NCBI GenBank assembly: GCA_016291435.1
Contig: JAEEXH010000001.1
Span: 59,661 to 123,660 of the forward strand
From: Oscillospiraceae bacterium
GTDB lineage: Bacteria; Bacillota; Clostridia; Oscillospirales; Ruminococcaceae
Length of the DNA: 64,000 nucleotides
Reading direction: 5' to 3'
The notes below the pieces were generated by a model. The model worked only from the letters and a program-made list of their open reading frames with translations, was not told the DNA's origin and did not search any database. This document shows, piece after piece, positions 4,611 to 20,748 of the stretch; positions within the stretch are counted from its first letter, which is position 1, and each line of letters opens with the position of its first letter. The position numbers and the translations under genes are program-made.

Positions 4611-5900
4611 TTATTTGTATACCGGGAGCCATTCCGCTTTGCCTGCAAGCAGATCGGATACGCTGCATTTCAGGCCGTCACGGAGCGGGTCGATGCCCTC
4701 CATGGGGTCTGCCGTGCGCTCCAGGAGGATGACCGTGAGCGTTTCGTCGTCAGAGAACATGTGCAAGAGCTGCATGTCCTCCGGGATTGCGATGCTGCCG
4801 CAGATCTGCATATCGGTACTGAGCAGCAGCACGCTGTTTTCTGCGCTTTCTGTGTAGAGGTAGGTACCGTCAAAGAGCATATGCTCCCAGCTGACATCGC
4901 CCGCCGCCTGCATATCAAGCGCTGTGTCGGTATCGGTGCCGGGGTCGCGCAGAAGCATCCGGGGATTCCCTGCCGAGGCATCTATCCGGATGAAGCGCTC
5001 CGCAGAGGGTGCGATCGCGGGGATATTCCCGCCAAGATAGGTCTCTGCTTCGCCGGTCAGCAGGCTGACACGGTGAATGCCGTCGCCGCTGCGGGGCTGC
5101 TTTGGCTGCCAGAAGTAAAGATCATCGCCGCTGCCCCAGAGGGTAGTCGGTTCGGTGAGTTTGCCAGGTCTGCCGGCGGGCGGCATTTCCTCGCAAACGA
5201 CAAACTGCCGCTTTTCTCTCGGGTCATAGCCGATGACCGCATAGCCCCTGCGCGAACAGTCTGCCTGTGAACCGACGATTGTGTTGTCCTGAAAATCGGG
5301 ATCATCGAGGATGCTGATGAGTGCATACAGGCAGCCGCGGTGTACGCAGAAGTCGGTCACATCCGCGGCGGTATAGGGCATTTCCCAGTATGCCAGCTCC
5401 TCGATGCCGGTGCCGTCCGGCGCATAAGAAAGGAGTACGGGAAAAGAAAAGTCAAAGTTTCCGTTTTTCTTATCCGCAAAGGAATAGAGCGTGCCGTCCG
5501 CAGAGAGGAGCCATGTCCGGCGGTATGTGTCCGCTGAGGCTTCGCAGAATGCGCTGCCGTCGTGCAGACAGTTTGCACGGGCGCAGAGCGGAACCGCCGT
5601 GCCGCTTCTGTCGCAGAACTGATAAAGCGTCTGTCCGCTGCCGTCATATTCGTCGGTGCGGTAGTAAATGCCGTCTGCCGTCTCCGCGATGAGCGGCATC
5701 GGTTCATAGATGCTCCTGACGCGCGCAGAGGGATTATCCTTCTGCGCGGTCAGGGTCGGAGCGGCATAGCCTTCATCGGTGATGTGCTTTTCCGGCAAAG
5801 CGGCGCTGCTTTCTTTCAAGGGCTGCCCGTCCGAAGCCTCTGCGCAGGCAGTGAGCGTGCAGCAGAGCAGGAGGAGAGAAACACACACAGAGCGTTTCAT
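4611..5900 (-). CDS. lipoprotein paralog (P1) of the C-x4-C-x-H-x5-C ectodomain family; lacks the anti-sigma-like N-terminus
   Basis: 429 aa. The signal peptide has a lipobox (MKRSVCVSLLLLCCTLTAC). It contains PLCARANCLHDGSAFCEAS, LLSYAPDGTGIEELA, HRGCLY and a C-terminal SDLLAGKAEW, as in the other paralogs. RBS GAGGAGGG; only 12 nt separate it from the P2 stop. Confidence 0.85.
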   Translation of the reverse strand: MKRSVCVSLLLLCCTLTACAEASDGQPLKESSAALPEKHITDEGYAAPTLTAQKDNPSARVRSIYEPMPLIAETADGIYYRTDEYDGSGQTLYQFCDRSGTAVPLCARANCLHDGSAFCEASADTYRRTWLLSADGTLYSFADKKNGNFDFSFPVLLSYAPDGTGIEELAYWEMPYTAADVTDFCVHRGCLYALISILDDPDFQDNTIVGSQADCSRRGYAVIGYDPREKRQFVVCEEMPPAGRPGKLTEPTTLWGSGDDLYFWQPKQPRSGDGIHRVSLLTGEAETYLGGNIPAIAPSAERFIRIDASAGNPRMLLRDPGTDTDTALDMQAAGDVSWEHMLFDGTYLYTESAENSVLLLSTDMQICGSIAIPEDMQLLHMFSDDETLTVILLERTADPMEGIDPLRDGLKCSVSDLLAGKAEWLPVYK

Positions 5901-5912
5901 GCGGTGCCCTCC

Positions 5913-7553
5913 TCAGTGATAAATGATCTGCATATTATCGTCAATATGTGCTGCCTTGAGCGTAATATCGGAGACCTGAAGGAATTTCTCCCAGTCCTCC
6001 GAAGCGCTGCCCTTTCCGGCGAGCAGATCGCTGACACGGATGCGGTAAAGATAATCGTTCGGGTCCATCGTTTCGATGTCGCTTCTCCACTGCGCTTCAT
6101 ATTCTCCGTTTTCCAGCTGCGTGTGCGTCACCAGATGTTCGGAATTGCGCTGCATCACATACAGATAATCCCCGCGCAGAAAGCTGTCTGTCTGAGATTC
6201 CATGAAATCCGGCGCCGCGACCGTCTGCACAACACGGCAGTCATAATCACAGAGATACAGCACAAAGTTCGGATCTTCCCCCTCTGCCGGGGTCGAGACA
6301 AACAGCAGATAATCGTCATTCACCGAATAGTCATCCCAGTTCGGGTGTCCCTTGATCCCGGTTCTGTCCAGACGGGTCTCCTCGCCCGTGAACAGGTCAA
6401 GGCGCGTGAGCTTTGTGCCGTTTATGTCGCTGTCAAGCACGAAGCAGGCGTCCTTGCCGAACTGGATATTTGCGTCCATCGCCTGTTTGAGCGTCTTTAT
6501 CTCGAAGCTGTGCAGATCGAGCTGCTTGATGCTGCCGAGGATCAGGCTGTCGCCGTATCCCGCGATCATCCCGTAGGTGCCGCAGTCCCTCGATTCATCC
6601 GGCTCCGGCATGTTTATCGCAAGAATGCCGCCCTTGCCGGTCGCGAGCTCATAGCAGACGATCGCCGAGCCGCGGCAGCACGGCGAGCCTGCAACATCAC
6701 GGTTGGTCGCGTCCAGACCGACAGAGGCAAAGAGACAGCCGCGGTAAAGGATCACATCCACCACAGATGCGGCATATGTTTCATACGGGAATGAGAACCG
6801 CATGAGCTCCTCAATGCGGGTGCCGTCATTTGCATAGCGCAGAACCAGCGGCCCCCCGCCCCAGGAGCCGTCCTCATTGAGCGGCTGGGTGATCATATAG
6901 AGCTGATCGTCATAGCTGATGAAACGCCCCGGTGCATAGGCTTTCGTCGATGCCACGCAGTAGGGATTGCCGTCGTGCAGGCAGTTTGCCCGGGCGCAGA
7001 GCGGCACGCATTCGCCGGTCTCCTTGTCCTGATAATAATAGCAGCTGTGCTCGTTCTGCGCGCGCTGCGGAAAGCTCTCGGTGTTGTCCGGGTCATAGTT
7101 CAGCTCATACGTATCCTGCATGTAGTAAAGGCCGTCCGAGGTCTCTGCAAACCATGCCATCTCGTCATAGCGATAGCGCTGTCCGCCGAGATGATACGGC
7201 GCTGCCGTGCGCGTGTCATCCGTGAGACGGAGCGCCTCCGGCTGCTCCTGCACGCTGACAACTGCCGGTTCATTGCTGCTGCCGCGGTCAAAGATATTGC
7301 CGCCCTGCGAGCCGCGCATTGCGACGGCTGCCGCGATGCCGCCCGCGCCGAGCACTGCCGCCGTGATCGCGGCACCGATCGCGATTTTTCCGATTTTCCG
7401 TTTGTTTTCCCGCTTTTCCATTGTGCGTTTCCCTTTCCGGGATGCTGCTTCGGCACGCTGCTCCCGCACATAGTCCGCGATCATGTCATAATACCTGCGG
7501 TCTGCGTTCTTCACAGCGCGGCGGATCCGTTCCTCCGTGAGCTTCACAGCCAT
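5913..7553 (-). CDS. single-pass membrane sensor paralog P2 (putative anti-sigma of module 1)
   Basis: 546 aa. N-terminal ADRRYYDM motif, TM AAVLGAGGIAAAVAMRG and ectodomain PLCARANCLHDGNPYCVAS. The ATG at 7553 overlaps the sigma stop by 10 nt. Confidence 0.85.
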   Translation of the reverse strand: MAVKLTEERIRRAVKNADRRYYDMIADYVREQRAEAASRKGKRTMEKRENKRKIGKIAIGAAITAAVLGAGGIAAAVAMRGSQGGNIFDRGSSNEPAVVSVQEQPEALRLTDDTRTAAPYHLGGQRYRYDEMAWFAETSDGLYYMQDTYELNYDPDNTESFPQRAQNEHSCYYYQDKETGECVPLCARANCLHDGNPYCVASTKAYAPGRFISYDDQLYMITQPLNEDGSWGGGPLVLRYANDGTRIEELMRFSFPYETYAASVVDVILYRGCLFASVGLDATNRDVAGSPCCRGSAIVCYELATGKGGILAINMPEPDESRDCGTYGMIAGYGDSLILGSIKQLDLHSFEIKTLKQAMDANIQFGKDACFVLDSDINGTKLTRLDLFTGEETRLDRTGIKGHPNWDDYSVNDDYLLFVSTPAEGEDPNFVLYLCDYDCRVVQTVAAPDFMESQTDSFLRGDYLYVMQRNSEHLVTHTQLENGEYEAQWRSDIETMDPNDYLYRIRVSDLLAGKGSASEDWEKFLQVSDITLKAAHIDDNMQIIYH

Positions 7554-8104
7554 CCCTCCTCACTCAAGAATTTCCGCAGCTTTTTGCGGGTGCGCATCAG
7601 CGTGACGGTCACCCGGCTCTGCGAGATGCCGAAGGCTTCGGCGATCTCCCGCGTGCTGCGGTCGTTTCCGTAGTAATGCACAAAGATCATGACAGTCATC
7701 TTCGGGAGCGTCTTCAGAAACCGCCCGACTGCTTCATCCAGAAGCCGCTCCTCCATGAGCTGCTCGATGGAATCGCCTGCCGGCTCCCTGCCGCGGCTAA
7801 GATCGTGGAGCGGGATCTCCGCCTGTCCGCCGCCGCGCTTCTTTGCCTGCTTCTGCTCCGCACGGTTGAGCGAAAGCCGCTTCACCGTCGTGTGCAGATA
7901 GGCGCCGAAGCTCTTCGGGGCTGCGGGCGGGACTGCGCTCCAGACTTGCAGCAGCGCGTCGTTCCAGACCTCCTCTGCGTCCTGCTCGCTGTGCAGAATG
8001 CGCATCGCGAGCTTTTTGCAGGCGCCGCCGTACTGCGCCGTCAGCGCCCTGAGCGCCGATTCATCGCGCTTTTGCAGCAGCGTTAAGATCTGCCTGTCCG
8101 TCAT
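7544..8104 (-). CDS. ECF-type sigma-70 family factor (module 1)
   Basis: 186 aa. Region 2-like DAEEVWNDALLQVWSAVPP...YLHTTVKRLSLNR and a region 4 HTH REIAEAFGISQSRVTVTLMRTRKKLRKFL. Confidence 0.88.
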   Translation of the reverse strand: MTDRQILTLLQKRDESALRALTAQYGGACKKLAMRILHSEQDAEEVWNDALLQVWSAVPPAAPKSFGAYLHTTVKRLSLNRAEQKQAKKRGGGQAEIPLHDLSRGREPAGDSIEQLMEERLLDEAVGRFLKTLPKMTVMIFVHYYGNDRSTREIAEAFGISQSRVTVTLMRTRKKLRKFLSEEGWL

Positions 8105-8260: not shown

Positions 8261-9949
8261 TTATTCGAGCGGCCCGTATTCATGATCCCAGCCGTTCTCA
8301 TAGAATGTGCCGTCATCGGGATTGTAACAGTAGTTGTGGATCAGCGTACACTGCGGCTCCCATTCCGGGCTGCCGCTCAGCAGTGAATCAATGCTGCACC
8401 GGCAGAGCACGCCGGGCGTCTCGCCGTCGCCGACATAGAGCACGCCTTCCGCATTCTTCTCGATCGCGTTGTAATCCAGCGCATAGAGGAAGCCGTCGCG
8501 CACCGACAGCTTGCGCAGCGCATGCCGGAAGCGATAGCTGACCGTTTGCAGAAGCTCACGGCTCGCAAGGTCGTAGACGCTGATGCGGTATTCCGCCTTC
8601 TGTACGCCGTCCTCCTTCATCACAACACGGCTCAGGCCGTAGAATCTGCTGCCGTCTGTCGTATAATCCTCAAATGCCGCATCCAAGAGCTTTTCGGATT
8701 CGCCGGTGTCAAGATTCATTTTCATGGTGTAGGATACATTCGGCGTGCGCACCTGATAAATCAAAGTGCTGCCGCACATCGTAAAGCCCGTCATGCCGTT
8801 ATTGGCACCCGAGACAACCTGCCTGTGCGCGCCTGTTTTCAGATCTATCGCAAAAATGCCGTTGCTGTTTTTCGCCTGCCAGTCGCCGCCGCCGATCTGA
8901 TAGCAGAGCCAGTCGCCGCCCGCACAGAGCATGACAGGCGTCGGATATATGATGTTCGACTCCGCATCCGGCATCGAGCGGTAAAGCTCCAGCGTCTTGC
9001 CGGTCGCGATCTCATAGCCGAAGATGGCGTAGCCTGTGTTGGATGTGTTCTCATCGCTCGGATTCTCGGGGTTGAAATCCGCCAGACGGTGATGCAGCTC
9101 TGCCATCCACCAGACATAGCCGCGGTGAATGACAGGCGTGCCGATGGGCATGGAGCATTCCGCCTTGATGCGGGCAAGCTCCGTGATGCCGGTGCCGTCG
9201 GGCGCATAGGAGAGCAGATAGGTGTATTCGCTGTTATACTGATCACGGTCTCCGGCTGCGGCATAGAGCACGCCGTCATAGGCAACAAGCCCGTGCTGCA
9301 CATATTTTTCCACAGACGCTTCGCAGAAATCATCGCCGTAATGCAGACAGTTCGGTCTTGCACAGAGCGGCACCTCCCCGCCGGATTCCGCATCGCTGTA
9401 TCCGATTATGCTTATGCCGCTTCGGTGGTCGGCATAAAACTTCGTGATCAGCTCATCCTGTTCGGTTTCGTCAAGCTGCGCGAGCGTATCATATGCGAAT
9501 GTGTTGACGATCGAGTGATACCAGCCGGTATCGGAGGCGGTGTACCAGAAACTGTAATTCTCAAGCGGACTGTGGAACCGCTGTGCCGAGTTGTCCCACT
9601 GCTGATCGGTGAGATGCAGCCCGAGTGTGTTCTGCTCTGTCTGCCCCGAAAGCTCCGCGGCACGGCTGCTGCCGTCAGACTGATTGTTTCCGCCGTTTGT
9701 GCCGCGCATTGCAACGATTGCCGCCATGCCGCCGCCGCCCAGCACTGCCGCCGCGAGCACCCCCGCGAACACATATTTCCCGATCCTCCGCCGCTTTTCT
9801 CTGCGCTGTTCTTTTTCCATATCAAATGCCTTTCCCTTCTGCCTCTGCGCGAACTCCGAAGGAGAGCAAAGTCTTGCGGAAAGCTCCGCAAAATACCGCT
9901 GATCGGCACGCGGCAAAGCATGCAGAAAGGCGCGTTCCTTTTTGTTCAC
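8261..9949 (-). CDS. single-pass membrane sensor paralog P3 (putative anti-sigma of module 2)
   Basis: 562 aa. The GTG start at 9949 overlaps the sigma stop (GTGA). TM AAAVLGGGGMAAIVAMRG and ectodomain PLCARPNCLHYGDDFCEAS. Confidence 0.85.
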   Translation of the reverse strand: MNKKERAFLHALPRADQRYFAELSARLCSPSEFAQRQKGKAFDMEKEQRREKRRRIGKYVFAGVLAAAVLGGGGMAAIVAMRGTNGGNNQSDGSSRAAELSGQTEQNTLGLHLTDQQWDNSAQRFHSPLENYSFWYTASDTGWYHSIVNTFAYDTLAQLDETEQDELITKFYADHRSGISIIGYSDAESGGEVPLCARPNCLHYGDDFCEASVEKYVQHGLVAYDGVLYAAAGDRDQYNSEYTYLLSYAPDGTGITELARIKAECSMPIGTPVIHRGYVWWMAELHHRLADFNPENPSDENTSNTGYAIFGYEIATGKTLELYRSMPDAESNIIYPTPVMLCAGGDWLCYQIGGGDWQAKNSNGIFAIDLKTGAHRQVVSGANNGMTGFTMCGSTLIYQVRTPNVSYTMKMNLDTGESEKLLDAAFEDYTTDGSRFYGLSRVVMKEDGVQKAEYRISVYDLASRELLQTVSYRFRHALRKLSVRDGFLYALDYNAIEKNAEGVLYVGDGETPGVLCRCSIDSLLSGSPEWEPQCTLIHNYCYNPDDGTFYENGWDHEYGPLE

Positions 9950-10515
9950 AATAAGCCCTCCCCGTTCAGAAATTTTCGCAGCTTAAGGCGTGTGCGCATC
10001 AGCGTGACAGCCGCCTTGCTGTAAGTGATCGCAAAGGCATCCGCGATCTCCCCGACCGACTTCCCGTTCACATAGCGGTGCAGGAAGATGGTGCGGGCTT
10101 CGGGTGTGAGCGTTGACAGAAAGCGGTTGACCGCCTCTGTCATCAGTGCTTCATCCATGATCTGCTCAACGGAGACCTTTGCGGGCTGCTGCCGCGCCGC
10201 TGCATCGTCGAGTGAAAGCTCCGGCAGACCGCCGCCGCGCTTTTTCGCGCGCTGTTTCTCGCGTTTCTGATATGCGTGCCGCCTGAGAACGGTGCAGAGA
10301 TAGGCAAAAAGATCCTCCGGCTCAGCGGGCGGAATCGCATTCCAGAGGCTCAGGAGCGTATCGTTCCAGACCTCTTTCGCGTCCTCCTCGGAGTGCAGGA
10401 TATTTGCCGCAATGTTTCTGCCGGCGCCGCCGTATTTTTTCGATACGGCTCGGAGCGCTTTTTCGTCCCGCGCTGCAAACAGAGCGAGAATCTGCTTGTC
10501 TTCCGTTGCAATCAC
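9946..10515 (-). CDS. ECF-type sigma-70 family factor (module 2)
   Basis: 189 aa paralog of 7544-8104 (EEDAKEVWNDTLLSLWNAIPP...; HTH GEIADAFAITYSKAAVTLMRTRLKLRKFL). The start is GTG at 10515 or the adjacent ATT; see findings. Confidence 0.85.
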   Translation of the reverse strand: MIATEDKQILALFAARDEKALRAVSKKYGGAGRNIAANILHSEEDAKEVWNDTLLSLWNAIPPAEPEDLFAYLCTVLRRHAYQKREKQRAKKRGGGLPELSLDDAAARQQPAKVSVEQIMDEALMTEAVNRFLSTLTPEARTIFLHRYVNGKSVGEIADAFAITYSKAAVTLMRTRLKLRKFLNGEGLL

Positions 10516-10580: not shown

Positions 10581-10626
10581 CTTGATATGAAAAAAATTTC
10601 TGCGTGTACAATGCACCTGCCTTTCC

Positions 10627-12261
10627 TTATTTGAGCGACACCTCCGAGAGCGTCAGCACGGTCTCGCAGTCTGAAGCATCCGTATCTCCGCGCAGCACAT
10701 CCGCCGTCGGGATGCGGCAGAGACAGGCGTTTGCGTCCGCGTCCGGATTGAAGTCGCCTTCCCTGATCAGACCGTCCTCATAGATAGTGTCGTAGCGAAG
10801 ATCGAAGCCGTCCGTCACAAACCAGAGATACCCGTCACGGACAAAATACCGCAGGATTTTGCCGCGCGATGTAAGGTCGATGCGTGCAAGCGTTCTGCCC
10901 GCCGCATCCCCGACCGCGATCCCGTGCGCATGCGTATCTTCCCCGTAATCTGACCACTGCCAGAAGGTATACTCCCCCTGCTTCAGCACAAACGGGAACG
11001 CCTCGCCCGCATCGCCGAGCTTCTGCCGCATCCCCTTCGTGATCTCGCCGGTTTCGTAATCGCAGAACTTATACGCCGGTTCAATGCCTGCGTCATCCCT
11101 GTAATAAATGCCGTCTGTACCCGCAAAGAAGTCCCCCGCGTACAGACGCACATTTTCCTCGAGCCGTTCGCAGGCAAATGTGCCGAGATCCATGCGGTAA
11201 ATACCGCTGTGTGTGCCTGTTTCGAGCGCATAGAGCGCACTGCCTTTGCACCAGATCTGCTCCGGGCTGCCGTATACCGTATGCTCGCCTTCCGGCGGGA
11301 GATTCAGATACAGCGTATACGCCTGCTTTTCCGCAAAGTCATAGCAGACAACTGCCCAGCCGCCGCGCACGGCTTTGGTGACGGTGCCGACATCCGGCTG
11401 CTCCGTGACCGCCTGCTCTGCAACAGAGAGCGCCGCAAAGAGATACCCTTTGTGGATGCAGAAATCCTGCACCGCGATCTGTGCATTCGGCAGGTCGCTT
11501 GTGAACTGCACAAGCTCCTCGATTCCGGTACCGTCAGGCGCATAGGAGAGCAGGAAGCAGCCCTTGCTGTCTGCGCCTCTGCCCTTTTCCGCAACGGTAT
11601 AAAGCCCGCCGTCCCAGCTCAGCAGATGATGTGTCTCATAGGCTTTTGTCGATGCCTCGCAGTATTCATTGCCGTCGTGCAGACAGTTTGCCCTTGCACA
11701 GAGCGGCACGGTCTCGCCGGTCGCCTTGTCCTTGTAGCAGAAATAATCTGCCGTGATCTCCGTCTGTTCTTCCGGCGGGGCATATTTGTCCCTCCTGCGG
11801 AAGAACCAGCCGTTCTCTGTTTCCGTGACATACGGATTCACGCTGATGCCGCGCAGACTGTCTGCAATGTAATAATCCTGCTCCGGCATGAGCCGCGCGG
11901 TGAAATCGTCATCGCCGCCCTCCGTGAGACGGAGCGCCGGGGTATCGACCCCTTCCGTGATATTTTTCAGTTTGACACCGACGGTGTTCCGCTGAAAGAT
12001 GCTGCCGCCCTGCGTGCCGCGCATTGCAACGATTGCCGCCATGCCGCCCGCGCCGAGCACTGCCGCCGCGATCAAACCCGCGGCCGCGATTTTTCCGATT
12101 CTGCCGATTTTCCCTCTGGTTTCCCGCTGCTTCATAAGACGCTGTCCTTTCCGGGCAGCCGTTTCACTGCGGTGCCGTTCGATGCGGCGCGTCACCATAT
12201 CAAAATAGCGGCGGTCTGCACGCTCGACAGCTTGCAGAAAATCCTTTTCCGTGATCTTCAC
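10627..12261 (-). CDS. single-pass membrane sensor paralog P4 (putative anti-sigma of module 3)
   Basis: 544 aa. ADRRYFDM, TM AAAVLGAGGMAAIVAMRG and PLCARANCLHDGNEYCEAS (codons 11659-11700). 4-nt overlap with the sigma stop. Confidence 0.85.
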   Translation of the reverse strand: MKITEKDFLQAVERADRRYFDMVTRRIERHRSETAARKGQRLMKQRETRGKIGRIGKIAAAGLIAAAVLGAGGMAAIVAMRGTQGGSIFQRNTVGVKLKNITEGVDTPALRLTEGGDDDFTARLMPEQDYYIADSLRGISVNPYVTETENGWFFRRRDKYAPPEEQTEITADYFCYKDKATGETVPLCARANCLHDGNEYCEASTKAYETHHLLSWDGGLYTVAEKGRGADSKGCFLLSYAPDGTGIEELVQFTSDLPNAQIAVQDFCIHKGYLFAALSVAEQAVTEQPDVGTVTKAVRGGWAVVCYDFAEKQAYTLYLNLPPEGEHTVYGSPEQIWCKGSALYALETGTHSGIYRMDLGTFACERLEENVRLYAGDFFAGTDGIYYRDDAGIEPAYKFCDYETGEITKGMRQKLGDAGEAFPFVLKQGEYTFWQWSDYGEDTHAHGIAVGDAAGRTLARIDLTSRGKILRYFVRDGYLWFVTDGFDLRYDTIYEDGLIREGDFNPDADANACLCRIPTADVLRGDTDASDCETVLTLSEVSLK

Positions 12262-12824
12262 AGCCAGCCCTCCTCATTCAGATATTGCCGCAGTTTTTTT
12301 CGGACGCGCATGAGCGTCACGGCGACCTTGCTGCGCGAGATGCCGAACGCCTTTGCGATTTCCGTAAAGCTGCGGTGGTTTCCGTAATGATGCACAAAGA
12401 TCGTCAGGGTCTCCTCAGGGAGCGTTGAGAGAAAGCGGTTGACCGCCTCCTCCAGCATCCGCGCCTCCATCAGCTCCTCGACCGTTTTGCCGCCCGATGC
12501 GGGATGACGGTGTTCGGGGAGTGCGTCAAGCGAGGTCTCCGCTCTGCCGCCGCCGCGCTTTATCGCCTGCCGCTTTTCGAGACGCTTCAGCGCAAGATGC
12601 CGGACGGCCGTGTGCAGATAGGCGCCGAGATCATCGGGCTCTGCGGGCGGGACAGCGTTCCAGAGATTCAGCAGGGCGTCGTTCCAGACCTCCTCTGCAT
12701 CCTCATCCGATTGCAGGATATTCCGTGCAATGCGCAGCCCCATCGGGCGATATGCCGCGGTGAGTGCCGCGAGCGCTGATTCATCGCGCCTTTGCAGCAG
12801 GGCGAGGATCTGCCTGTCGTTCAT
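12258..12824 (-). CDS. ECF-type sigma-70 family factor (module 3)
   Basis: I chose the ATG at 12824 (MNDRQILALLQ) because it has GGAAG 8 nt upstream. The track ORF extension to 12962 runs through the promoter motif and is rejected. Confidence 0.85.
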   Translation of the reverse strand: MNDRQILALLQRRDESALAALTAAYRPMGLRIARNILQSDEDAEEVWNDALLNLWNAVPPAEPDDLGAYLHTAVRHLALKRLEKRQAIKRGGGRAETSLDALPEHRHPASGGKTVEELMEARMLEEAVNRFLSTLPEETLTIFVHHYGNHRSFTEIAKAFGISRSKVAVTLMRVRKKLRQYLNEEGWL

Positions 12825-12899
12825 TGTGATCACTTCCATTCCGTTTGTGTGCGCGGTTCCGGAGCCGCAGCACTGTGCAGAGAATTCTCTGTACTGGTA

Positions 12900-12927
12900 T
12901 GACCGGAAACAGATCTGAATGGTTACA
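12900..12927 (-). promoter_or_regulatory. ECF-type promoter-like motif TGTAAC-N16-CGGTCA (module 3)
   Basis: Minus-strand reading: TGTAAC cattcagatctgtttc CGGTCA taccagtACAGAG. Confidence 0.5.
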
Positions 12928-12984
12928 CATGCGGGAAAAAAATTTTTGTTTGGAAAGATCATCTCCTTTCAGATGATGCTGTAT

Positions 12985-14613
12985 TCAGTTCAGCAGTGCG
13001 CTGAGCCGCTGAATCTTCTCGATCGTGCAGACCGTTTCCCAGTCGGCGCTGCCCGCTTTGAGATCAGCCGTTTTGCAGCGAACAAGACAGGTGTCCGGGT
13101 CGTCCGCCGAGATCATGCCGCCGCTGCGGTAAGAAGGTCCCATCAGCGCACAGATGTCGCCGCCGATGAGCCGCAGCGTGAGGAAATCGCGGTCTGCGGG
13201 GCCTTCCAGCGTCCCCTGAAGCTGCATATCCATGTCGTAGAGATAAACCGTGCAGTGATCGTCAGCGGTGCCTGCCTGCTTGCAGATCGCGACATGCTTT
13301 CCGTCCGAAACCGTGATGCCGCTCGGGATATCGCTGTATATTTTGCTTTCGCCGGTCTCGGTGTCCAGAATGCAGAACTGATACTGATTCACCTTGACCT
13401 GCTTGCGGCAGAGGATATATTTGCCTGCCGTACCCTCACGGGCATAGCTTGCTGTGCCGCTCAGCAGCGTCTTCACCTCGCCGCTGCGCAGATCGAGCCC
13501 GTAGAGACCGACGGTGTAGGTCGCAGGCCAGCCGGATTCGCTTGAGAAATAGAGCATATCGCCGCCTGCCGAAAGAAACCGCGGCGGCTCCTCATAGCCC
13601 TTGGAGTTGTTCTCCTTCGGCATGACACTGAGCACCTCTGTCGTTTTGCCAGTCGCGATCTCGTAGGCATAGACCGCATAGCCTGTGCCCTTATGGGGAT
13701 TGTTGAAATCAAATTCGCTCTCGCTTGGCGAGGCGCCGTTCCGCACACGGTACAGGCAAAACACATAGCCGCGGTGGATGATCATATCCAGCGGGTCTGC
13801 CTCGCCCTTGCTGAACACCGCAAGCTCCGTGATGCCCGTGCCGTCAAGCGCATAGGAGAGCAGGCAGCGGCGGTAATTCTCGGGGTCGTCCTCATCGGTC
13901 GAGCGCGCCGCACAATAGAGCACGCCGTCATAATAAAGCGGTTTCCCGCGGTAATACTTTGCTGTTGTCGCCTCGCAGTATTCATTGCCGTCATGCAGGC
14001 AGTTCGGGTGCGCACAGAGCGGCACATCCTCGCCGGTCTCGCTGTCATAATACCAGATGATGTCATTGCGCGGCTTGGAAGTGTTATATGCGCTTTCCGC
14101 CGCATCCATCCTTTCATTCTCCGCGTCGGTATAGGAATTCTCCCCGCCTCCGCGCAGATCGTCGATCAGTTCAAAATTGATCTCATGATACCAGCCTGTA
14201 TCCGATGCCGTGAACCACATCTGGTCTGCGATATAGGAGTCGCCGGTATTGATCTCGCACCACTCCCCGCCGTCGGTGAGATTGAGATGCAGCGCTGCGG
14301 TGCCGTCTGTCTGCGAGGATGTGACCTCTGCGGCACGGCTGCTGCCGTCAGACTGATTGTTTCCGCCCTGCGTGCCGCGCATTGCGACGATTGCCGCCAT
14401 GCCGCCCGCGCCGAGCACTGCCGCCGCGATCACACCCGCGGCCGCGATTTTTCCGATTTTTCCAAGATGCTTTCCCACTTTGGATGCCTTCCCTTTCCGG
14501 GATGCCGCAAACGCATCCGGGTCGGCGCGGCGCCTTGCGATCTCCGCATAGAAGCGCCGGTCTGCATCCTTCATGAGCCGCAGAAATTCCTGCTCCCTGT
14601 GTTTCACAGCCAT
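12985..14613 (-). CDS. single-pass membrane sensor paralog P5 (putative anti-sigma of module 4)
   Basis: 542 aa. ADRRFYAE, TM AAAVLGAGGMAAIVAMRG and PLCAHPNCLHDGNEYCEAT. 10-nt overlap with the sigma stop. Confidence 0.85.
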   Translation of the reverse strand: MAVKHREQEFLRLMKDADRRFYAEIARRRADPDAFAASRKGKASKVGKHLGKIGKIAAAGVIAAAVLGAGGMAAIVAMRGTQGGNNQSDGSSRAAEVTSSQTDGTAALHLNLTDGGEWCEINTGDSYIADQMWFTASDTGWYHEINFELIDDLRGGGENSYTDAENERMDAAESAYNTSKPRNDIIWYYDSETGEDVPLCAHPNCLHDGNEYCEATTAKYYRGKPLYYDGVLYCAARSTDEDDPENYRRCLLSYALDGTGITELAVFSKGEADPLDMIIHRGYVFCLYRVRNGASPSESEFDFNNPHKGTGYAVYAYEIATGKTTEVLSVMPKENNSKGYEEPPRFLSAGGDMLYFSSESGWPATYTVGLYGLDLRSGEVKTLLSGTASYAREGTAGKYILCRKQVKVNQYQFCILDTETGESKIYSDIPSGITVSDGKHVAICKQAGTADDHCTVYLYDMDMQLQGTLEGPADRDFLTLRLIGGDICALMGPSYRSGGMISADDPDTCLVRCKTADLKAGSADWETVCTIEKIQRLSALLN

Positions 14614-15173
14614 CCCTCCTCGTGCATTGCCTTCCGAAGCCTGATGCGCGTCCGCATCAGGGTGACAGCAACCTTGCTCCGCGAAATGTGAAATTCCGCC
14701 GCGATCTCTGAGACGGTCTTTCCCGTGCCGTAATGCTCCAGAAAAATCGTTCTGGCATCGGGTGAGAGCGCCGTGAGAAAGCGGTTGACGGAATCGAGCA
14801 TCATGGCGCGCTCCATGAGCTCCTCCACATCATTGCTCTGCGGGTGGTGCTTTTCGGAGATTGCTTCCAGTGAGAGCTCCGGCTGACCGCCGCCGCGCTT
14901 CTGCGTGTTTTTCTTCTCGAGCCTTTGCAGCGAGAGCCGCCGCACGGCGGTGCAGAGATAGGCAAAGAGATCGTCGGGCTTTGCGGGCGGGATCGCATTC
15001 CAGAGATGCAGCAGGGCATCGTTCCAGATTTCCTCTGCGTCCGCCTCTGAGTGCAGTATATCCCTTGCGATTTTGCGCCCGGCTCTGCCGTACTGCTTTG
15101 TCAGCAGATGCAGCACCTGTTCGTCGCGCTGCTCGAGCATTCTGATCAAGCGGCTGTCTTCCGTTGTCATCAC
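14604..15173 (-). CDS. ECF-type sigma-70 family factor (module 4)
   Basis: 189 aa paralog. GTG at 15173 is followed directly by ATG at 15170; the ATG is the more likely start given GAAAGG 5 nt upstream. Confidence 0.85.
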   Translation of the reverse strand: MMTTEDSRLIRMLEQRDEQVLHLLTKQYGRAGRKIARDILHSEADAEEIWNDALLHLWNAIPPAKPDDLFAYLCTAVRRLSLQRLEKKNTQKRGGGQPELSLEAISEKHHPQSNDVEELMERAMMLDSVNRFLTALSPDARTIFLEHYGTGKTVSEIAAEFHISRSKVAVTLMRTRIRLRKAMHEEGWL

Positions 15174-15267: not shown

Positions 15268-15451
15268 GAATTCGCAATGCGCAATTCGCAGTGCGCAATG
15301 AAGGTGTCGGCTTGCGCCGACGAATTTGGATTGAGCTCTGCCCAACCCTGACAAACAGATTACTTACGCCAAGGGGCTTGGGCGTCAGCCCCATTCATAA
15401 TCATCGCGAAGCGATACCGCCATTGCGCATTTCGCATTGCAAATTGCGCAC
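15268..15451. repeat. MITE-like element with GCGCAATG-type terminal inverted repeats and internal mini-hairpins
   Basis: Left end gaattcgcaatgcgcaattcgcagtgcgcaatg; right end cattgcgcatttcgcattgcaaattgcgc. The core (gtcggcttgcgccgac ... gcccc attcataatcatcgcgaagcgatac) is the reverse complement of the core at 60791-60963. Confidence 0.8.
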
Positions 15452-15459
15452 TGATTCTG

Positions 15460-17097
15460 TCAGTTTTCGGGTTCAGGGTGCTCCGCACGCCATGCCTCCA
15501 TGTCGATCTCGTGCATCTTCACCAGCGTACACGCCTGCTTCCATTCCGCATTGCCCGCAAGCAGCGCCTCCCGGCTGCATGACAGCACGGCGGCATCCTT
15601 TGCGATGATGCCGGATGTCTCCTGGATTTGCCCCTGATACTCCGTAATGACGCCGTCCGTGATGACTGTGACCGTGTCGCCGAACACCATGATTCTCCGC
15701 ACGCACTGATGATCGGGCACGCGCAGGGAGGCGACCTCCTTGCCCGTCATATCCAGCACGCGCACAGCATAGCTCATAACCTCCCTGCTTTTATCCGCCT
15801 CAGCCGAGTAGATATAGCTTCCGTCCGTCACAGAGTACGAGAGCGAGCCGTTATACAGCGTTTCCGTTTCGCCGGTCGCCGCATCGGTTGATTTTACCTT
15901 GTCCGGCGTGGCATCAAAATCCGTGTAATAGACTTTGCTGCCGGATACGGCAAAAACAGCCTCCTTATCCACGAGCTGTTTATGGCTGCCGTCTGTGAGA
16001 TTCAGCGCATAGATGCCTTGTTTGTTGGTATTCTGCCATGTGCCGTTTCCTATGGAATAGAACAGATAATCGCCGCCTGCCGAAAAAGTCCACGGTGCAT
16101 CTTGCCTGATACCGGAGCCTGCCTTCGGCATACAGCTATAGATCTCCGTCGCCTTGCCCGTGGCAATCTCATAGCCGAGAATCGCATAGCCGCTGTCGCT
16201 TTTTGTCACAAAGCCCGCCGCATCATATTCCAGCGGATTGATTTTCATGAAAATGCAGAACACATAGCCGCGGTGAACAACCGGTGTGCAGATCACATCG
16301 GTATACTGCTCGCCGAATGTGCAGAGCTCGGTGATGCCCGTGCCGTCCGGCGCATAGGAAAGCAGCACGGCGGTTGTCTTTTTCGGTACTGTTCCATCCG
16401 ATTTCAGTTCATCGAAATTCAGCGTTTTCAGCGCGGAAGCGTAGATCACGCCGTCCACACAGACCGGATCCGAGCGGCGGTAGGTATTCGAGGTCGCTTC
16501 GCAGTATATGCTGCCGTCATGCAGGCAGTTCGGTCTTGCGCAGAGCGGCACATCCTCGCCGGTTTCGCCGTCGCAGAACATGAGCGGCAGGTTTTCCAGA
16601 TAAAGCTTCGTCGGATACAACTCCTGCTGTGCTTCAAAGAACTCCTCGCCGAGCTCGCCGTCTGAGGGCGCTGCCGTCTCATCATAGCTGTGATACCAGC
16701 CGTTTTCGGTCGGGAACGCACAGCCGTAACCCGTGCTGCCATAGGAATCCGACTGCATGGCATTCCACTGCTGATCGGTGAGATTGAGACTGAGCGCTTC
16801 CGCGTGCTGCTCCTCGACCATACTGCGCATGTCGCGGGATTCCTCGCTGACGATGCCGAAGCCGCCGCGCATCGCGACCGCTGCCGCAATGCCGCCTCCG
16901 CCGACGAGTGCCGCTGCGAGCACCACGCCCCACGCAAGCTTCTTGTGATGTTTTTTCTCCGCAGATTTCATTTTGCGTGTTCCTCCTGCTCCGTATTTCG
17001 CTGCGAAAGCCTGAGGATCCGCTGCCCGGTCTGCGGCCATTTTGAAGAAACGGCGGTCTGCGCCTTTGACCGCACGCAAAAATTCCTTTTCCGTCAT
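15460..17097 (-). CDS. single-pass membrane sensor paralog P6 (putative anti-sigma of module 5)
   Basis: 545 aa. ADRRFFKM, TM LAAALVGGGGIAAAVAMRG and PLCARPNCLHDGSIYCEAT. ATGA overlap with the sigma stop. Confidence 0.85.
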   Translation of the reverse strand: MTEKEFLRAVKGADRRFFKMAADRAADPQAFAAKYGAGGTRKMKSAEKKHHKKLAWGVVLAAALVGGGGIAAAVAMRGGFGIVSEESRDMRSMVEEQHAEALSLNLTDQQWNAMQSDSYGSTGYGCAFPTENGWYHSYDETAAPSDGELGEEFFEAQQELYPTKLYLENLPLMFCDGETGEDVPLCARPNCLHDGSIYCEATSNTYRRSDPVCVDGVIYASALKTLNFDELKSDGTVPKKTTAVLLSYAPDGTGITELCTFGEQYTDVICTPVVHRGYVFCIFMKINPLEYDAAGFVTKSDSGYAILGYEIATGKATEIYSCMPKAGSGIRQDAPWTFSAGGDYLFYSIGNGTWQNTNKQGIYALNLTDGSHKQLVDKEAVFAVSGSKVYYTDFDATPDKVKSTDAATGETETLYNGSLSYSVTDGSYIYSAEADKSREVMSYAVRVLDMTGKEVASLRVPDHQCVRRIMVFGDTVTVITDGVITEYQGQIQETSGIIAKDAAVLSCSREALLAGNAEWKQACTLVKMHEIDMEAWRAEHPEPEN

Positions 17098-17663
17098 AGC
17101 CAGCCCTCCTCATTCAGATACTTTTTCAGCTTGATGCGGGTGCGCATCAGACTGAGCGCAGCCTTGTTCCGTGAAATTTGGTACATGTCTGCGATCTCCG
17201 CGATGCTTTTGCCGTTGCCGTAGCGCTGCACAAAGATCGTGCAGGCATCGGGCGAAAGCGACTGCAAAAAGCGGTTGACCGCATCGTTCAGGAAAATCGC
17301 GCCGACCGTTTCCTCGACCGCATTGCGTGCGGGCTGGGCGTGCTCGGGGAGATTTTCGAGCGACAGTGCCGCCTGTCCGCCGCCGCGCTTCTGCGCGTTC
17401 CTCTGATCGAGCCGTTTATAGCAAAGATTGCGCACAACGGTCGTGAGATAGGCGTAGAAATTATCGGGGCGTGCGGGCGGGATTGCATTCCAGACCTGCA
17501 TCAGTGCATCGTTTAAGACCTCCTCCGCGTCCTGCTCGGAATGGAGCAGATGCGCGGCGAGATTTCTGCATGCCCTGCCGTATTGCTTCGAGACCGCAGC
17601 GAGGGCAGCTTCATCGCGTGCAAAGAACAGATCGAGGATCTGCCTGTCGTTCAATGTGATCAC
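17094..17663 (-). CDS. ECF-type sigma-70 family factor (module 5)
   Basis: 189 aa paralog. The track start is GTG at 17663. By alignment with module 3 (ATG AAC GAC AGG CAG), the TTG at 17654 (TTG AAC GAC AGG CAG) is an alternative start. Confidence 0.82.
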   Translation of the reverse strand: MITLNDRQILDLFFARDEAALAAVSKQYGRACRNLAAHLLHSEQDAEEVLNDALMQVWNAIPPARPDNFYAYLTTVVRNLCYKRLDQRNAQKRGGGQAALSLENLPEHAQPARNAVEETVGAIFLNDAVNRFLQSLSPDACTIFVQRYGNGKSIAEIADMYQISRNKAALSLMRTRIKLKKYLNEEGWL

Positions 17664-17862: not shown

Positions 17863-19485
17863 TCAGCCGTAGGCCGCTTCAGCAGTGACAAATTCAAACA
17901 CCGTCTCCCAGTGCGGATCATCTGCGATCAGATCAGATAGATCACAGCAGAGGAGCTTCGCCGATTCGCTCTTCTGCCGCTTCTGCACCGAAATCTCCGG
18001 GTCCTGCGTGTAATAATACAGCTGATACAGCTTTCCGTCATGCACCTTCATGTTGCCGAAGACCGCATTCTCAGGGCGCTGCACGCTTGCGATCTGATTC
18101 CATTCGCTGTCAAAAATCACGGTCACATCACGCGAGCTGCCCGATGTGTTTTCGTAATCGGTGCGCTCGGCAATCACATAATCGCCTGCCTGCACAAGCC
18201 GATGGTAATTGTCCCTCATATCGAACGGGAGCTCCGTATTCTCGCCGGTTTCAAGGTCATAGCTGTAATTCAGATAGATCGGTGTGCCACTGCCGTGTTC
18301 CTTTGCGGCATCCGTCTTATAATAGATTTTCTGCTTTGCCGCAAACAGAAGATTCTGCGATATTTCATAGCCCGCAAGCGGGAGCTTTTCGCAGGCGCCG
18401 GTCACAAGATTGATCGCATAGATTCCCTTCGGCTCGGGCGACGGCCATTTCGCAAACTGATAGCTGAAATAGATTCTGTCGCCTGCCGCCAAAAGAGATC
18501 CGTTCGGCACATCGTATTCCTTGCCCTCGTCCGCGCCCGGCATCGAGCGGAAGATCTCCGCTGTTTTGCCGCTTGCCAGCTCATAGCCCCGGATAACAAA
18601 GCCGCTCGAAACCTGCCGCTTTGTTTCGCCTGTGAATTCATCCCCGGTTTCCTCGCCGTAATAGCTGTAATCTTTGTAGACCGCAAAGATGCAGCCGCGA
18701 TGCAGGATCGGGTCGCCGATCAGCTCCGCCTTCGGGTGCACATCAAAGTGTGCAAGCTCCGTGATGCCGCTGCCGTCCGGCGCATAGGCGAGCACATAGC
18801 CCGCGTCATATCCGCCCTTGTCGTTTCGCTTCGAGGCAAGCGCATAGAGCGCATCGCCGTAAGGGATCAGCGCCGAGCGGTCGGCATAGCCCTTTGTGGA
18901 GGCTTCGCAGAAATCGCTGCCGTCGTGGAGACAGTTTGCGCGCGCGCAGAGCGGCAGCGTTTCGCCGGTCTCGCTGTCTGTGAAGACAACGCCGTGATTC
19001 ATCGGCAGATTTTCATACCAGTCAAGATAGCCGAGACCGTCATAATTGCCGTCTGCATCCGTTTTGATCTCGGTGCGATAGATCTGCTCGTGATAAAAGC
19101 CCTTGTCTGTCGCAGCAAACCAGAGATGCTCCTGCGGGGATACAGACTGCCCGTAGCTTTTGCAGAAGAGATCGTTCCATTCCTGATTTGTGAGCGTCAG
19201 CCCGCTTTGCGCGGTGACAGTCTGCTCCGTGTGATTGTTTCCGCCGTGTGCACCGCGCAGCGCGACCGTTGCCGCTATGCCGCCCGCACCGAGCACTGCC
19301 GCGGCGATCACCGCAGTGAGCGCATATTTTGTGATGCGCCGGATCTTTTGCTTTTGCATGAGATGCCTTCCCTTCCGGGCGGCTGCCCCAGCTTTTGTCT
19401 CCGCAATGCGGCGCTTCACCATGTCATAATATCTGCTGTCCGCCTCCCGCACGGCGGCGCGCAGTATCTGATCATCCAGCTTCAC
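17863..19485 (-). CDS. single-pass membrane sensor paralog P7 (putative anti-sigma of module 6)
   Basis: 540 aa. ADSRYYDM, TM AAAVLGAGGIAATVALRG and PLCARANCLHDGSDFCEAS. 4-nt overlap with the sigma stop. Confidence 0.85.
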   Translation of the reverse strand: MKLDDQILRAAVREADSRYYDMVKRRIAETKAGAAARKGRHLMQKQKIRRITKYALTAVIAAAVLGAGGIAATVALRGAHGGNNHTEQTVTAQSGLTLTNQEWNDLFCKSYGQSVSPQEHLWFAATDKGFYHEQIYRTEIKTDADGNYDGLGYLDWYENLPMNHGVVFTDSETGETLPLCARANCLHDGSDFCEASTKGYADRSALIPYGDALYALASKRNDKGGYDAGYVLAYAPDGSGITELAHFDVHPKAELIGDPILHRGCIFAVYKDYSYYGEETGDEFTGETKRQVSSGFVIRGYELASGKTAEIFRSMPGADEGKEYDVPNGSLLAAGDRIYFSYQFAKWPSPEPKGIYAINLVTGACEKLPLAGYEISQNLLFAAKQKIYYKTDAAKEHGSGTPIYLNYSYDLETGENTELPFDMRDNYHRLVQAGDYVIAERTDYENTSGSSRDVTVIFDSEWNQIASVQRPENAVFGNMKVHDGKLYQLYYYTQDPEISVQKRQKSESAKLLCCDLSDLIADDPHWETVFEFVTAEAAYG

Positions 19486-20048
19486 AGCCTGCCCTCCTTA
19501 TCGAGCCATTTCCACAGCTTCCTGCGGGTGCGCATCAGCGTCACGGCAACCTTGCTCTGCGTGATGCCGAACGCCTCAGCGATCTCGCGGATGCTGCGGC
19601 CGTTTCCGTAGTAATGCACAAAGATCGTGACAGTCTCCTCCGGCTGCGTGCCGAGAAAGCGGTTCACAGACGCATAGAGCGCACGGGCATCCATAAGCTC
19701 CTCCACGCTTTTCCCGGCGGGGTGCAGGCTTTCCGGCAGCGCATCGAGCGAAACCGGGCTTCTGCCGCCGCCGCGCTTCTGCGCGTTTCTCTGCTCCAGA
19801 CGGTTGAGCGAAAGCCGCTTCACCACCGTATGCAGATAGGCGCCGAGACTGCGCGGCTGCTCCGGCGGAATGCTGCTCCAGATTTGCAGCAGCGCATCGT
19901 TCCAGACCTCTGCCGCGTCCTCCTCGCTTCCGAGCAGGCGGCAGGCGAGCTTTCTGCACTGTGTCCCGTACTGCGCCGTCAGCTCCCGCAGTGCCGTTTC
20001 ATCGCGGCTTTGCAGGAGACGGAGAATCTGTCTGTCGGTCAATGTCAT
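19482..20048 (-). CDS. ECF-type sigma-70 family factor (module 6)
   Basis: ATG at 20048 (MTLTDRQILRLLQ) follows GAAAGGAAG. The track extension to 20261 runs through the promoter motif and a repeat element and is rejected. Confidence 0.85.
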   Translation of the reverse strand: MTLTDRQILRLLQSRDETALRELTAQYGTQCRKLACRLLGSEEDAAEVWNDALLQIWSSIPPEQPRSLGAYLHTVVKRLSLNRLEQRNAQKRGGGRSPVSLDALPESLHPAGKSVEELMDARALYASVNRFLGTQPEETVTIFVHYYGNGRSIREIAEAFGITQSKVAVTLMRTRRKLWKWLDKEGRL

Positions 20049-20274: not shown

Positions 20275-20748
20275 TTATTCGGGTTCCAGCTCCATGCGGA
20301 GACGCTGATGCCCGCGCCGGAGCCATGCGCTCACGGTGTTCGGCCTGGCATCGAGCATTTCTGCGATCTCGCGGATCTTGTAGCCCGCGCAGTCGTGGAG
20401 ATAGACCGCCGCGGAATAGGGCTGCGGCAGTGCGGCGATCAGTGCAAGGATCTCCGCGGAATTGTCGGGCTCCGCGGGCAGGTCTGCGATGTCCTCCACA
20501 TCCGTCCGCATGCGGCTCCAGAGGCTTTTCCGCAGATTCTTTGCGCGGTTCATCACGGCGCGCAGGATATACGCTTTCAGGTGCGCGTCGCTTTCAAACT
20601 GCACGGGCTTTCTGTGCAGCGCAAAGAACACCTCCTGTGCGATGTCCTCCGCGTCCTCGCGGCTGCCCGTTGCACAGTAAGCCGCCTGCAATGCCGTGTC
20701 GCCGAATTTCCGGAAGGCATAGAGCGCGATGTTTTCCTGATTCAGCAT
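20275..20748 (-). CDS. ECF sigma factor of a different lineage (157 aa; module 7, located downstream of its membrane partner)
   Basis: Region 2 DAEDIAQEVFFALHRKP...YILRAVMNRAKNLRK and region 4 YKIREIAEMLDARPNTVSAWLRRGHQRL. The ATG at 20748 lies 9 nt after the P8 stop, with GGAGTGAGG upstream. Confidence 0.88.
   Translation of the reverse strand: MLNQENIALYAFRKFGDTALQAAYCATGSREDAEDIAQEVFFALHRKPVQFESDAHLKAYILRAVMNRAKNLRKSLWSRMRTDVEDIADLPAEPDNSAEILALIAALPQPYSAAVYLHDCAGYKIREIAEMLDARPNTVSAWLRRGHQRLRMELEPE

Follow-up and report, generated by a model that had tools for sequence, protein, structure and literature searches.

A 64,000-nucleotide (nt) stretch of DNA from an Oscillospiraceae bacterium, referred to here as the window, carries a head-to-tail array of extracytoplasmic function (ECF) sigma factor and anti-sigma factor genes on its minus strand, at 4.6-22.5 kb. 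Within this array, the DNA encoding a single transmembrane (TM) helix is nearly identical between paralogs that are otherwise strongly diverged. This near-identity is very probably the product of protein constraint combined with ectopic gene conversion among the tandem genes. The observations bearing on it are local homogenisation of the patch, a dated conversion tract, mosaic breakpoints, structural variants between strains, and incongruence between trees built from different parts of the genes. In the following, P1 to P8 denote the eight paralogs, S2 to S7 the sigma factor genes, and the window strain is the source of the DNA under study.

Near-identity of the helix DNA between diverged paralogs

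Over their whole length, the P4 and P5 genes are 49% identical in DNA and 31% identical in protein, and the seven TM-bearing paralogs as a group share 24-37% of their residues and 42-52% of their bases. The segments of the array examined for homogenisation are as follows.

12005-12100, minus strand: TM-helix patch, P4 copy, encoding IGKIAAAGLIAAAVLGAGGMAAIVAMRGTQGG (94/96 against the P5 copy)
14363-14458, minus strand: TM-helix patch, P5 copy (27/29 identical-residue codons the same as in P4)
9656-9766, minus strand: P3 TM and juxtamembrane patch matching P5 (101/111)
14329-14362, minus strand: P5 juxtamembrane tract NNQSDGSSRAAE, common to P3 and not to P4; second half of the P5 mosaic
14427-14449, minus strand: strain-specific P4-to-P5 micro-conversion tract of 23 nt inside the P5 patch (nine differences from contig L009)
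7311-7388, minus strand: P2 TM-helix segment, member of the homogenised group (same-codon counts)
16864-16941, minus strand: P6 TM-helix segment, with weaker homogenisation within the window array
19252-19329, minus strand: P7 TM-helix segment
22228-22305, minus strand: P8 TM-helix segment, with the same protein motif in other synonymous codons; a non-homogenised internal control
11984-11993, minus strand: P4 side of the chimera junction of contig L012 (P3 side 9627-9636; microhomology GAACAC)

An earlier note on this DNA had proposed the P4/P5 match from a hand alignment, and recounting reproduced its 94 identical bases; the two mismatched positions, 12028 and 12075, divide the patch into exact runs of 23, 46, and 25 nt. 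The P3/P5 match described in the same note is real, but its coordinates were one base off (26/111 identities as given); 9656-9766 against 14329-14439 yields 101 of 111 identical bases, not 102. Past the helix the proteins diverge as described (P4 SIFQRNT versus P5 NNQSDGSS), and NNQSDGSSRAAE is indeed common to P3 and P5. The helix had been attributed to all eight paralogs and is found in seven, P1 being a lipoprotein without it, while P6 and P8 carry variants of the motif.

Sliding-window comparison localized the signal. In windows of 20 codons, identity reached 92-98% for P4/P5 and 93% for P3/P5 solely at the TM and juxtamembrane columns. The next-best peaks, at the CCHC and LLSYAPDGTGI motifs, reached at most about 87% and about 80%, respectively. 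Furthermore, codon alignment revealed that P5 equals P4 from IGKIA across the helix to GTQGG and then equals P3 over NNQSDGSSRAAE. The P3-like stretch comprises 12 codons that are not conserved in the family, and P4 continues there like P2 (SIF/NIF). The P5 patch is, by this alignment, a mosaic with discrete breakpoints and different donors (P4 and P3).

Constraint and conversion at the codon level

Recent conversion and very strong constraint had originally been offered as alternatives; each has held up, as both operate, and it is their mutual exclusivity that has to be given up. Codon usage was compared as the fraction of identical codons at positions where two paralogs share a residue. Within the patch, the counts were 27/29 for P4-P5, 22/23 for P2-P4, and 23/24 for P2-P5, while the same pairs had fractions of 0.60-0.63 outside the patch (Fisher P 3e-4 to 7e-4). 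Sharing expected from the codon usage of the genes themselves was about 0.45, compared to 0.93-0.96 observed in the P2/P4/P5 patch. P8 shared 31/86 codons (0.36) with P2-P7 in the patch and 0.74 in other conserved motifs. Protein conservation alone is not the source of the DNA identity, because P8 writes essentially the same helix in other codons. Synonymous sites of P2, P4, and P5 are homogenised in the patch well above the level of the remainder of those genes. A Sawyer-type permutation of polymorphic sites, scoring the maximal matching fragment between paralogs, likewise supports conversion: in the pairs P4-P5, P3-P5, P2-P4, and P2-P5, the top-scoring fragment lies at the TM region (global P<0.0005). 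The clear homogenisation signal is confined to P2, P3, P4, and P5.

The helix is also well conserved as a protein. Residues A66 and A67 are invariant across the family, G72, A76, V78, and A79 are near-invariant, and both P8 and other species of the genus encode the motif with different codons. The helix sequence AAxxLGxGGxxAxVAM-R is under strong purifying selection across the family, and non-allelic gene conversion acts atop this protein constraint. Constraint without any conversion would require that an invariant Gly/Ala peptide, written in the preferred GCG, GCA, and GGC codons, becomes identical in DNA through purifying selection and codon bias. The genus-wide conservation of the motif, the 71% share of GGC among Gly codons in these genes, and the raised codon sharing of other conserved motifs (0.69-0.74) are in keeping with such an explanation. 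Against it stand the excess over expected codon sharing in P2/P4/P5, the low sharing of P8 at the same residues, and the reach of the identity into flanks that are variable across the family. It is already contradicted by the strain comparison below, where a paralog-matching tract of nine differences is limited to one strain, and we regard it as quite improbable.

Conversion tracts in conspecific strains

Among GTDB species representatives no close ortholog was found, the best match outside the window genome being 37% identical. Strains were compared through protein clusters with 9-13 conspecific variants per paralog, and ten contigs were examined. Comparison with arrays of related strains, which the earlier note had suggested, revealed a strain-specific P4-type tract in P5 as well as polymorphisms shared between paralogs. 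Across 5.6 kb, the window and contig L009 agree at about 98% of positions. In the 1.2 kb around the P5 patch, the two differ at 8 scattered positions and at 9 positions packed in 14427-14449 (Poisson P 1.3e-13 versus the local background). At all nine, the window P5 carries the P4 base, for which the chance expectation is 5e-5. The L009 state (KIAVGAVLT) is present in 8/8 other full-length conspecific P5 alleles and resembles the P5-type ortholog of a related species (L10_b), while the window tract matches P4 of strains L016-18 in every letter. Over these 23 nt, P5 and P4 of the window genome are more alike than P5 alleles are across genomes. The tract 14427-14449 is a recent micro-conversion from P4 to P5.

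Micro-conversions in other strains were compared across one 150-nt region. P4 of L012 and L019 has the P3-type GGGGTGCTC (GGG GTG CTC), P3 of L009 has the P4/P5-type CTCGGCGCG (CTC GGC GCG), and P3 of L020 has the P4/P5-type ACG CAG. P3, P4, and P5 also have GCA/GCG and GTT/GTC polymorphisms in common, and paralogs of one strain tend to carry the same variant.

A further difference lies near window position 9670, at the P3 codon SSR-A-AEL, where the window P3 has GCC (Ala), the same as P5. Twelve other conspecific P3 variants encode Ser (TCC), or Phe in two, with one exception (P0044), which probably represents the same strain as the window. This Ala codon may be a single-site P5-to-P3 conversion or a point mutation.

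The helix region as a boundary between modules

Structural variants between strains place larger exchanges next to the same segment. On contig L012 (L012:1518-3161), S4 is followed by an in-frame chimera of the P4 head and TM helix with the P3 ectodomain. P4 position 11984 is joined to P3 position 9636, 21 nt behind the patch, with an in-frame deletion of 2348 nt, equal to one unit length. Expressed in window coordinates, 12261-11984 is joined to 9636-8261, and S3 is deleted together with the remainder of P4 and P3. In this chimera a sigma module has been naturally re-paired with a different sensor.

Ectodomain replacement was also observed in P5 and P6. In strains L016-18 the sigma factor, head, and helix of P5 are kept, while the ectodomain (window 12985-about 14350) is at most 37% identical to any window ectodomain, with divergence from about 14350. 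In both P5 of L016-18 and P6 of L013, the sigma factor, head, and TM helix are 87-100% identical. Compared to L013, the window has 98-100% DNA identity in every 100-nt interval of S6, and 96-100% where P6 encodes its head and helix; between about 16770 and about 15650 identity drops to 55-80% (63% in protein), so that the P6 swap begins about 90 nt downstream of the helix, at roughly 16770. Ectodomain allele classes are strongly diverged within the species, and the adjoining sigma genes are 98-100% identical in DNA. The P7 allele classes are about 76% identical and include a block of roughly 300 nt at 46-51% nucleotide identity (within 18130-18500).

The trees are in conflict over the same boundary. 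When the window (W) was compared to L010, the syntenic array of a related species, the tree of sigma factor and head grouped W5 with L010_5 (99/96), W7 with L010_2 (100/98), and W2 with L010_3 (95/93). The ectodomain tree grouped W_P2 with L010_5, W_P5 with L010_2, and W_P6 with L010_4 (all 100/99-100). By these conflicting, well-supported trees, sigma/head and sensor modules were re-paired during evolution, and the boundary between the two lies in the TM and juxtamembrane region.

The array also varies in the number of its units. In L013, L014, and L015 the whole S4-P4 unit (window 10595-12951) is absent and P5 is directly followed by S3; the junctions fall between genes, some 33 nt past the stop codons of P5 and P4. 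The loss of S4-P4 represents copy-number variation of the array within the species. Separately, about 130 nt of the P6-S5 spacer (15295-15423) are absent at the same site in L015 and cannot be aligned in L009; this segment appears to be an insertion polymorphism.

Homogenisation of the same segment in other lineages

The same part of the gene is homogenised in other species. In L010, a tract of 111-115 nt is 89-92% identical among three paralogs whose overall identity is 29-40%; it includes the C-terminal half of the helix together with 20 juxtamembrane codons (GGYAAMVALRNNQGIFGEESRDISSM). In G016, from another species of the genus, 4/5 paralogs share GGCGGCATCACGGCAGCGGTTGCGATG (GGC GGC ATC ACG GCA GCG GTT GCG ATG), and two paralogs share 72 nt with two mismatches. 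The synonymous codons of G016 differ from those of the window, and homogenisation is thus lineage-specific. Lineage-specific homogenisation is what concerted evolution would predict, and not what a universal nucleotide element would. For the G008 array (L002), the motif filter gave no intact open reading frames (ORFs).

Proposed mechanism and alternative explanations

Conservation of the helix is likely due to the need of all paralogs to fit the same membrane and the same cytoplasmic partners. The conserved, G+C-rich helix DNA is the longest near-identical run between diverged neighbours (exact runs up to 46 nt), and no other segment would have the length and similarity that homologous pairing of diverged units requires. 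RecA-type recombination requires roughly 20-30 identical bases or more, and the exact runs here measure 23-46 nt. Tracts of tens of bases are copied repeatedly among P2, P3, P4, and P5, erasing synonymous differences, and conversion would preserve the homology that enables further conversion, in a self-reinforcing loop. Longer events, presumably anchored at the patch, begin or end just 3' of the helix and replace the ectodomain, and replacement at this point leaves the module of sigma factor, head, and TM helix with a history separate from that of the propeller sensor module. The L012 microhomology junction beside the patch presumably reflects homology-facilitated illegitimate recombination. 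Two elements of this account are inferred, namely that the recombination is homologous and of RecA type, and which partner the helices share.

Several observations weigh against constraint plus conversion as described. At one codon the converted P5 reads GTG but P4 of the window reads TTG, so that the tract is patchy or else came from a P4 allele with GTG, like that of L016-18. Ectodomain replacements and junctions begin 13-90 nt behind the helix patch and not inside it, and the patch may anchor these events rather than be the crossover point. Other conserved motifs share codons as well (0.69-0.74 versus a background of 0.58), even with P8. Across P2-P7 the same-codon fraction of the patch is 0.79 and that of two other conserved motifs is 0.69-0.73. 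The array-wide excess in the patch is thus modest, and part of the array-wide TM identity is attributable to residue conservation and codon bias. Codon-sharing excesses of P6 and P7 are not individually significant. Finally, all sequences are metagenome assemblies or metagenome-assembled genomes (MAGs), and the only other record with the converted P5 protein, GCA_016648615.1, may come from the same strain or sample.

The last of these points leads to the explanation that both patch identity and strain variants are assembly artefacts, produced when an assembler or polishing step mixed reads of repeat-sharing paralogs. The window genome is a MAG of 155 contigs with 3.6% contamination, the comparison sequences are all metagenomic contigs, and the haplotypes are known from assemblies alone. 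However, the P4-type tract in P5 has a 5' flank of about 11-14 nt shared with P4, which is below assembler k-mers, and one base of the tract is not that of P4 in the window. The junction of the L012 chimera lies beyond the repeat, at a microhomology of 6-7 nt. Allele classes were also found again in independent samples (L013-15, and L016-18 with an NCBI MAG among them). Tract flanks, L012 junction, and recurring allele classes argue against assembly artefacts, which we rate as improbable, and no more probable than constraint without conversion.

Least probable of all is a nucleotide-level element, whether an mRNA structure, an internal promoter or small RNA site, or the site of a dedicated recombinase: synonymous sites are conserved among P2-P5 and every copy lies at the same place in its gene, but P8 and the arrays of other species encode the same helix with other codons, homogenised tracts end at different limits depending on pair and lineage, all copies are direct repeats and could not form an inversion switch, and predicted RNA folds were no more stable than shuffled controls (z -1.06, -1.29, and -0.29). 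RNA structure was rejected on the folds of the patch in P4, P5, P3, and P8 (z -0.3 to -1.3). A diversity-generating retroelement or shufflon-type mechanism was set aside without a dedicated search, as the copies are all direct repeats and the allele differences are not adenine-specific.

Gene content and organization of the array

The array comprises six ECF sigma/anti-sigma pairs (S2-P2 to S7-P7) flanked by two odd paralogs, P1 and P8. Each of the six sigma genes encodes about 186-189 residues and overlaps, by a few bases, the start of its P gene, the P2-P7 products having 540-562 residues. The genes are listed below.

4611-5900, minus strand: P1, 429-residue lipoprotein version of the ectodomain, no TM patch (ORF)
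5913-7553, minus strand: P2, 546-residue paralog (ORF)
7544-8104, minus strand: S2, ECF sigma factor, overlapping the P2 start
8261-9949, minus strand: P3, 562-residue paralog (ORF)
9946-10515, minus strand: S3, ECF sigma factor, overlapping the P3 start
10627-12261, minus strand: P4, 544-residue single-pass anti-sigma-like protein with a predicted beta-propeller ectodomain (ORF, AlphaFold2, Foldseek)
12258-12827, minus strand: S4, ECF sigma factor, its stop codon overlapping the P4 start (Pfam matches)
12985-14613, minus strand: P5, 542-residue paralog (ORF)
14604-15173, minus strand: S5, ECF sigma factor, overlapping the P5 start (Pfam matches)
15460-17097, minus strand: P6, 545-residue paralog (ORF)
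17094-17663, minus strand: S6, ECF sigma factor, overlapping the P6 start
17863-19485, minus strand: P7, 540-residue paralog (ORF)
19482-about 20051, minus strand: S7, ECF sigma factor, overlapping the P7 start
20758-22512, minus strand: P8, 584-residue divergent paralog (ORF; gene order the same in L013)

S4 and S5 match the Pfam families Sigma70_r2, Sigma70_r4_2, and Sigma70_ECF and consist of sigma-2 and sigma-4 domains only; the same three families are also precomputed for every sigma gene on the conspecific strain contigs. P1 has a signal peptide and no TM helix of the P2-P7 type. P8 has a different cytoplasmic head, and its sigma gene (157 residues, 20275-20748) follows rather than precedes it.

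A distant ninth paralog is located on another contig of the window genome (L007; G000:C27:55231-55875), behind a sigma-like ORF; it has a CANPACLH motif, and its TM helix is without the GAGG/AAVAM motif. On the plus strand, open frames of 330-520 residues run antisense to the anti-sigma genes (8522-10024, 11209-12387, 13693-14691, and 18040-19611). G+C-rich codon usage most likely explains these frames, which were not treated as genes.

Protein architecture and predicted fold

In P2-P7 a single Gly/Ala-rich TM helix connects a short cytoplasmic head to an ectodomain that, as predicted for P4, is a beta-propeller. None of the P proteins matched a Pfam family at E<=0.01, and there was no match to known anti-sigma domains or RsgI_N; a sequence search of the PDB with P4 returned nothing at E<=1. 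An AlphaFold2 model of P4 was built on 27 homologs, with a mean predicted local distance difference test score (pLDDT) of 70.6, mostly 80-90 over residues about 210-480, and a predicted template modelling score (pTM) of 0.70. In the model an N-terminal helical head runs into the TM helix, followed by an all-beta ectodomain. Foldseek matched the ectodomain to TolB, DPP-IV, S9 peptidase, and other beta-propellers (E 1e-7 to 1e-5), with low TM-scores (0.2-0.5). The modelled ectodomain is consistent with a TolB/DPP-IV-like beta-propeller of four-stranded blades. Sigma factor and head co-segregate in trees, the genes overlap, and a single hydrophobic helix is present; P2-P7 are predicted to be the anti-sigma factors of the adjoining ECF sigma genes.

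A juxtamembrane motif, L-x-L-T-(D/E)-(Q/G), follows about 25-45 residues past the helix and is invariant in the 27 homologs (L110, L112, and T113 in P4 numbering). It lies at about 9590-9620, 11930-11950, and 14270-14300 of the window and at equivalent positions, and could be a site-1 cleavage or docking site.

The earlier note had suggested that the helix is either a substrate of a site-2 protease (RseP/RasP) or a helix-helix oligomerisation interface; the first of these roles is plausible. Mid-helix G(A/G)GG and the XAA motifs AAA, MAA, and IAA are present, a resemblance at the level of sequence. Regulated intramembrane proteolysis would fit, given the helix-breaking GAGG at mid-helix, the several XAA motifs, and the presence of Peptidase_M50 genes, which are nearly universal. 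The window genome has three Peptidase_M50 (PF02163) matches, the best at 201 bits, and these do not discriminate, as 14/14 control genomes match too. In RsgI helices of Clostridium thermocellum, XAA motifs become ClpXP recognition sites after RseP cleavage (PMC12203970).

Comparison to known systems

A close parallel in pattern comes from TLR1 and TLR6, tandem paralogous receptors that undergo interlocus gene conversion (Kruithof et al. 2007, PMC2077338), for which co-evolution with shared partners was offered as the reason. Both systems consist of tandem single-pass receptors with recurrent, independent conversion in several lineages, and in both the TM or signalling part is more alike between paralogs than between orthologs while the ligand-binding part diverges. 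However, the TLR tract spans about 300 residues including the TIR domain, whereas the tracts described here measure 20-115 nt and are centred on the TM helix. Furthermore, the cytoplasmic head is not homogenised here and stays specific to its own sigma factor, and the host is a bacterium in which events are visible as polymorphism within one species.

In architecture, P2-P7 resemble the Tt-RpoE1/Tt-TolB pair of Thermoanaerobacter tengcongensis, in which anti-sigma residues 1-39 bind the sigma factor and the large C-terminal part is annotated as TolB-like (PMC3397946). There, too, the gene behind the ECF sigma gene encodes an anti-sigma factor of head, TM helix, and propeller. The likeness drawn here is one of architecture, and Tt-RpoE1/Tt-TolB is a single pair, with no tandem array and no recombination described. 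Multiple SigI/RsgI pairs occur in C. thermocellum, where the TM helix is cut by RseP and then processed by ClpXP (PMC12203970, PMC10328401). As in the window, many paralogous sigma/anti-sigma pairs carry variable extracellular sensors, and the window helix also holds XAA sites. In contrast, SigI falls outside the ECF sigma factors, and the dispersed RsgI genes encode sensors that are carbohydrate-binding modules rather than propellers. RsgI TM helices are poorly conserved (PMC12203970), whereas the window helices are nearly identical.

In prokaryotic concerted evolution, paralogs within a genome are kept alike by recurrent conversion, which sometimes affects part of a gene (PMC6053082, PMC4632066). 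Conversion in the array is likewise recurrent and restricted to part of the gene. The cases described there appear to concern long-lasting conversion in conserved genes, e.g. the duplicated mtrA of methanogens, whereas here a regulatory array of six to seven members is affected in one short segment, with reassortment of modules in addition. A literature search on gene conversion in ECF or anti-sigma genes returned no report of such conversion for ECF sigma/anti-sigma arrays. Segmental conversion in tandem receptors and prokaryotic concerted evolution were already known; what is added is population-level evidence for sensor swapping.

Implications

ECF sigma/anti-sigma pairs are the commonest form of bacterial transmembrane signalling after one- and two-component systems and serve as orthogonal parts in synthetic biology. 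The array is a natural illustration of how such sensors hold one part, the helix, in common while other parts can diverge freely. It also illustrates how, in wild populations, sensor domains are swapped from one sigma module to another at breakpoints immediately after the helix. The region behind the helix is suggested as a practical fusion point for chimeric sensors. For metagenomics, tandem paralog arrays in MAGs can conceal strain-level structural variation behind a single assembly. The pattern also raises the question of whether one processing machinery is common to all paralogs.

A more tentative possibility, which we think less likely than not, is that the patch, beyond being a passive conversion hotspot, is a maintained recombination hinge. 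A short DNA segment held identical in all units would then let the array re-pair a few sigma/anti-sigma output modules with a large, fast-turning pool of propeller sensors. If this were true, exchange within the array and between strains would rewire signal to regulon in a cassette-like manner, by a logic comparable to that of immune-system receptor families.

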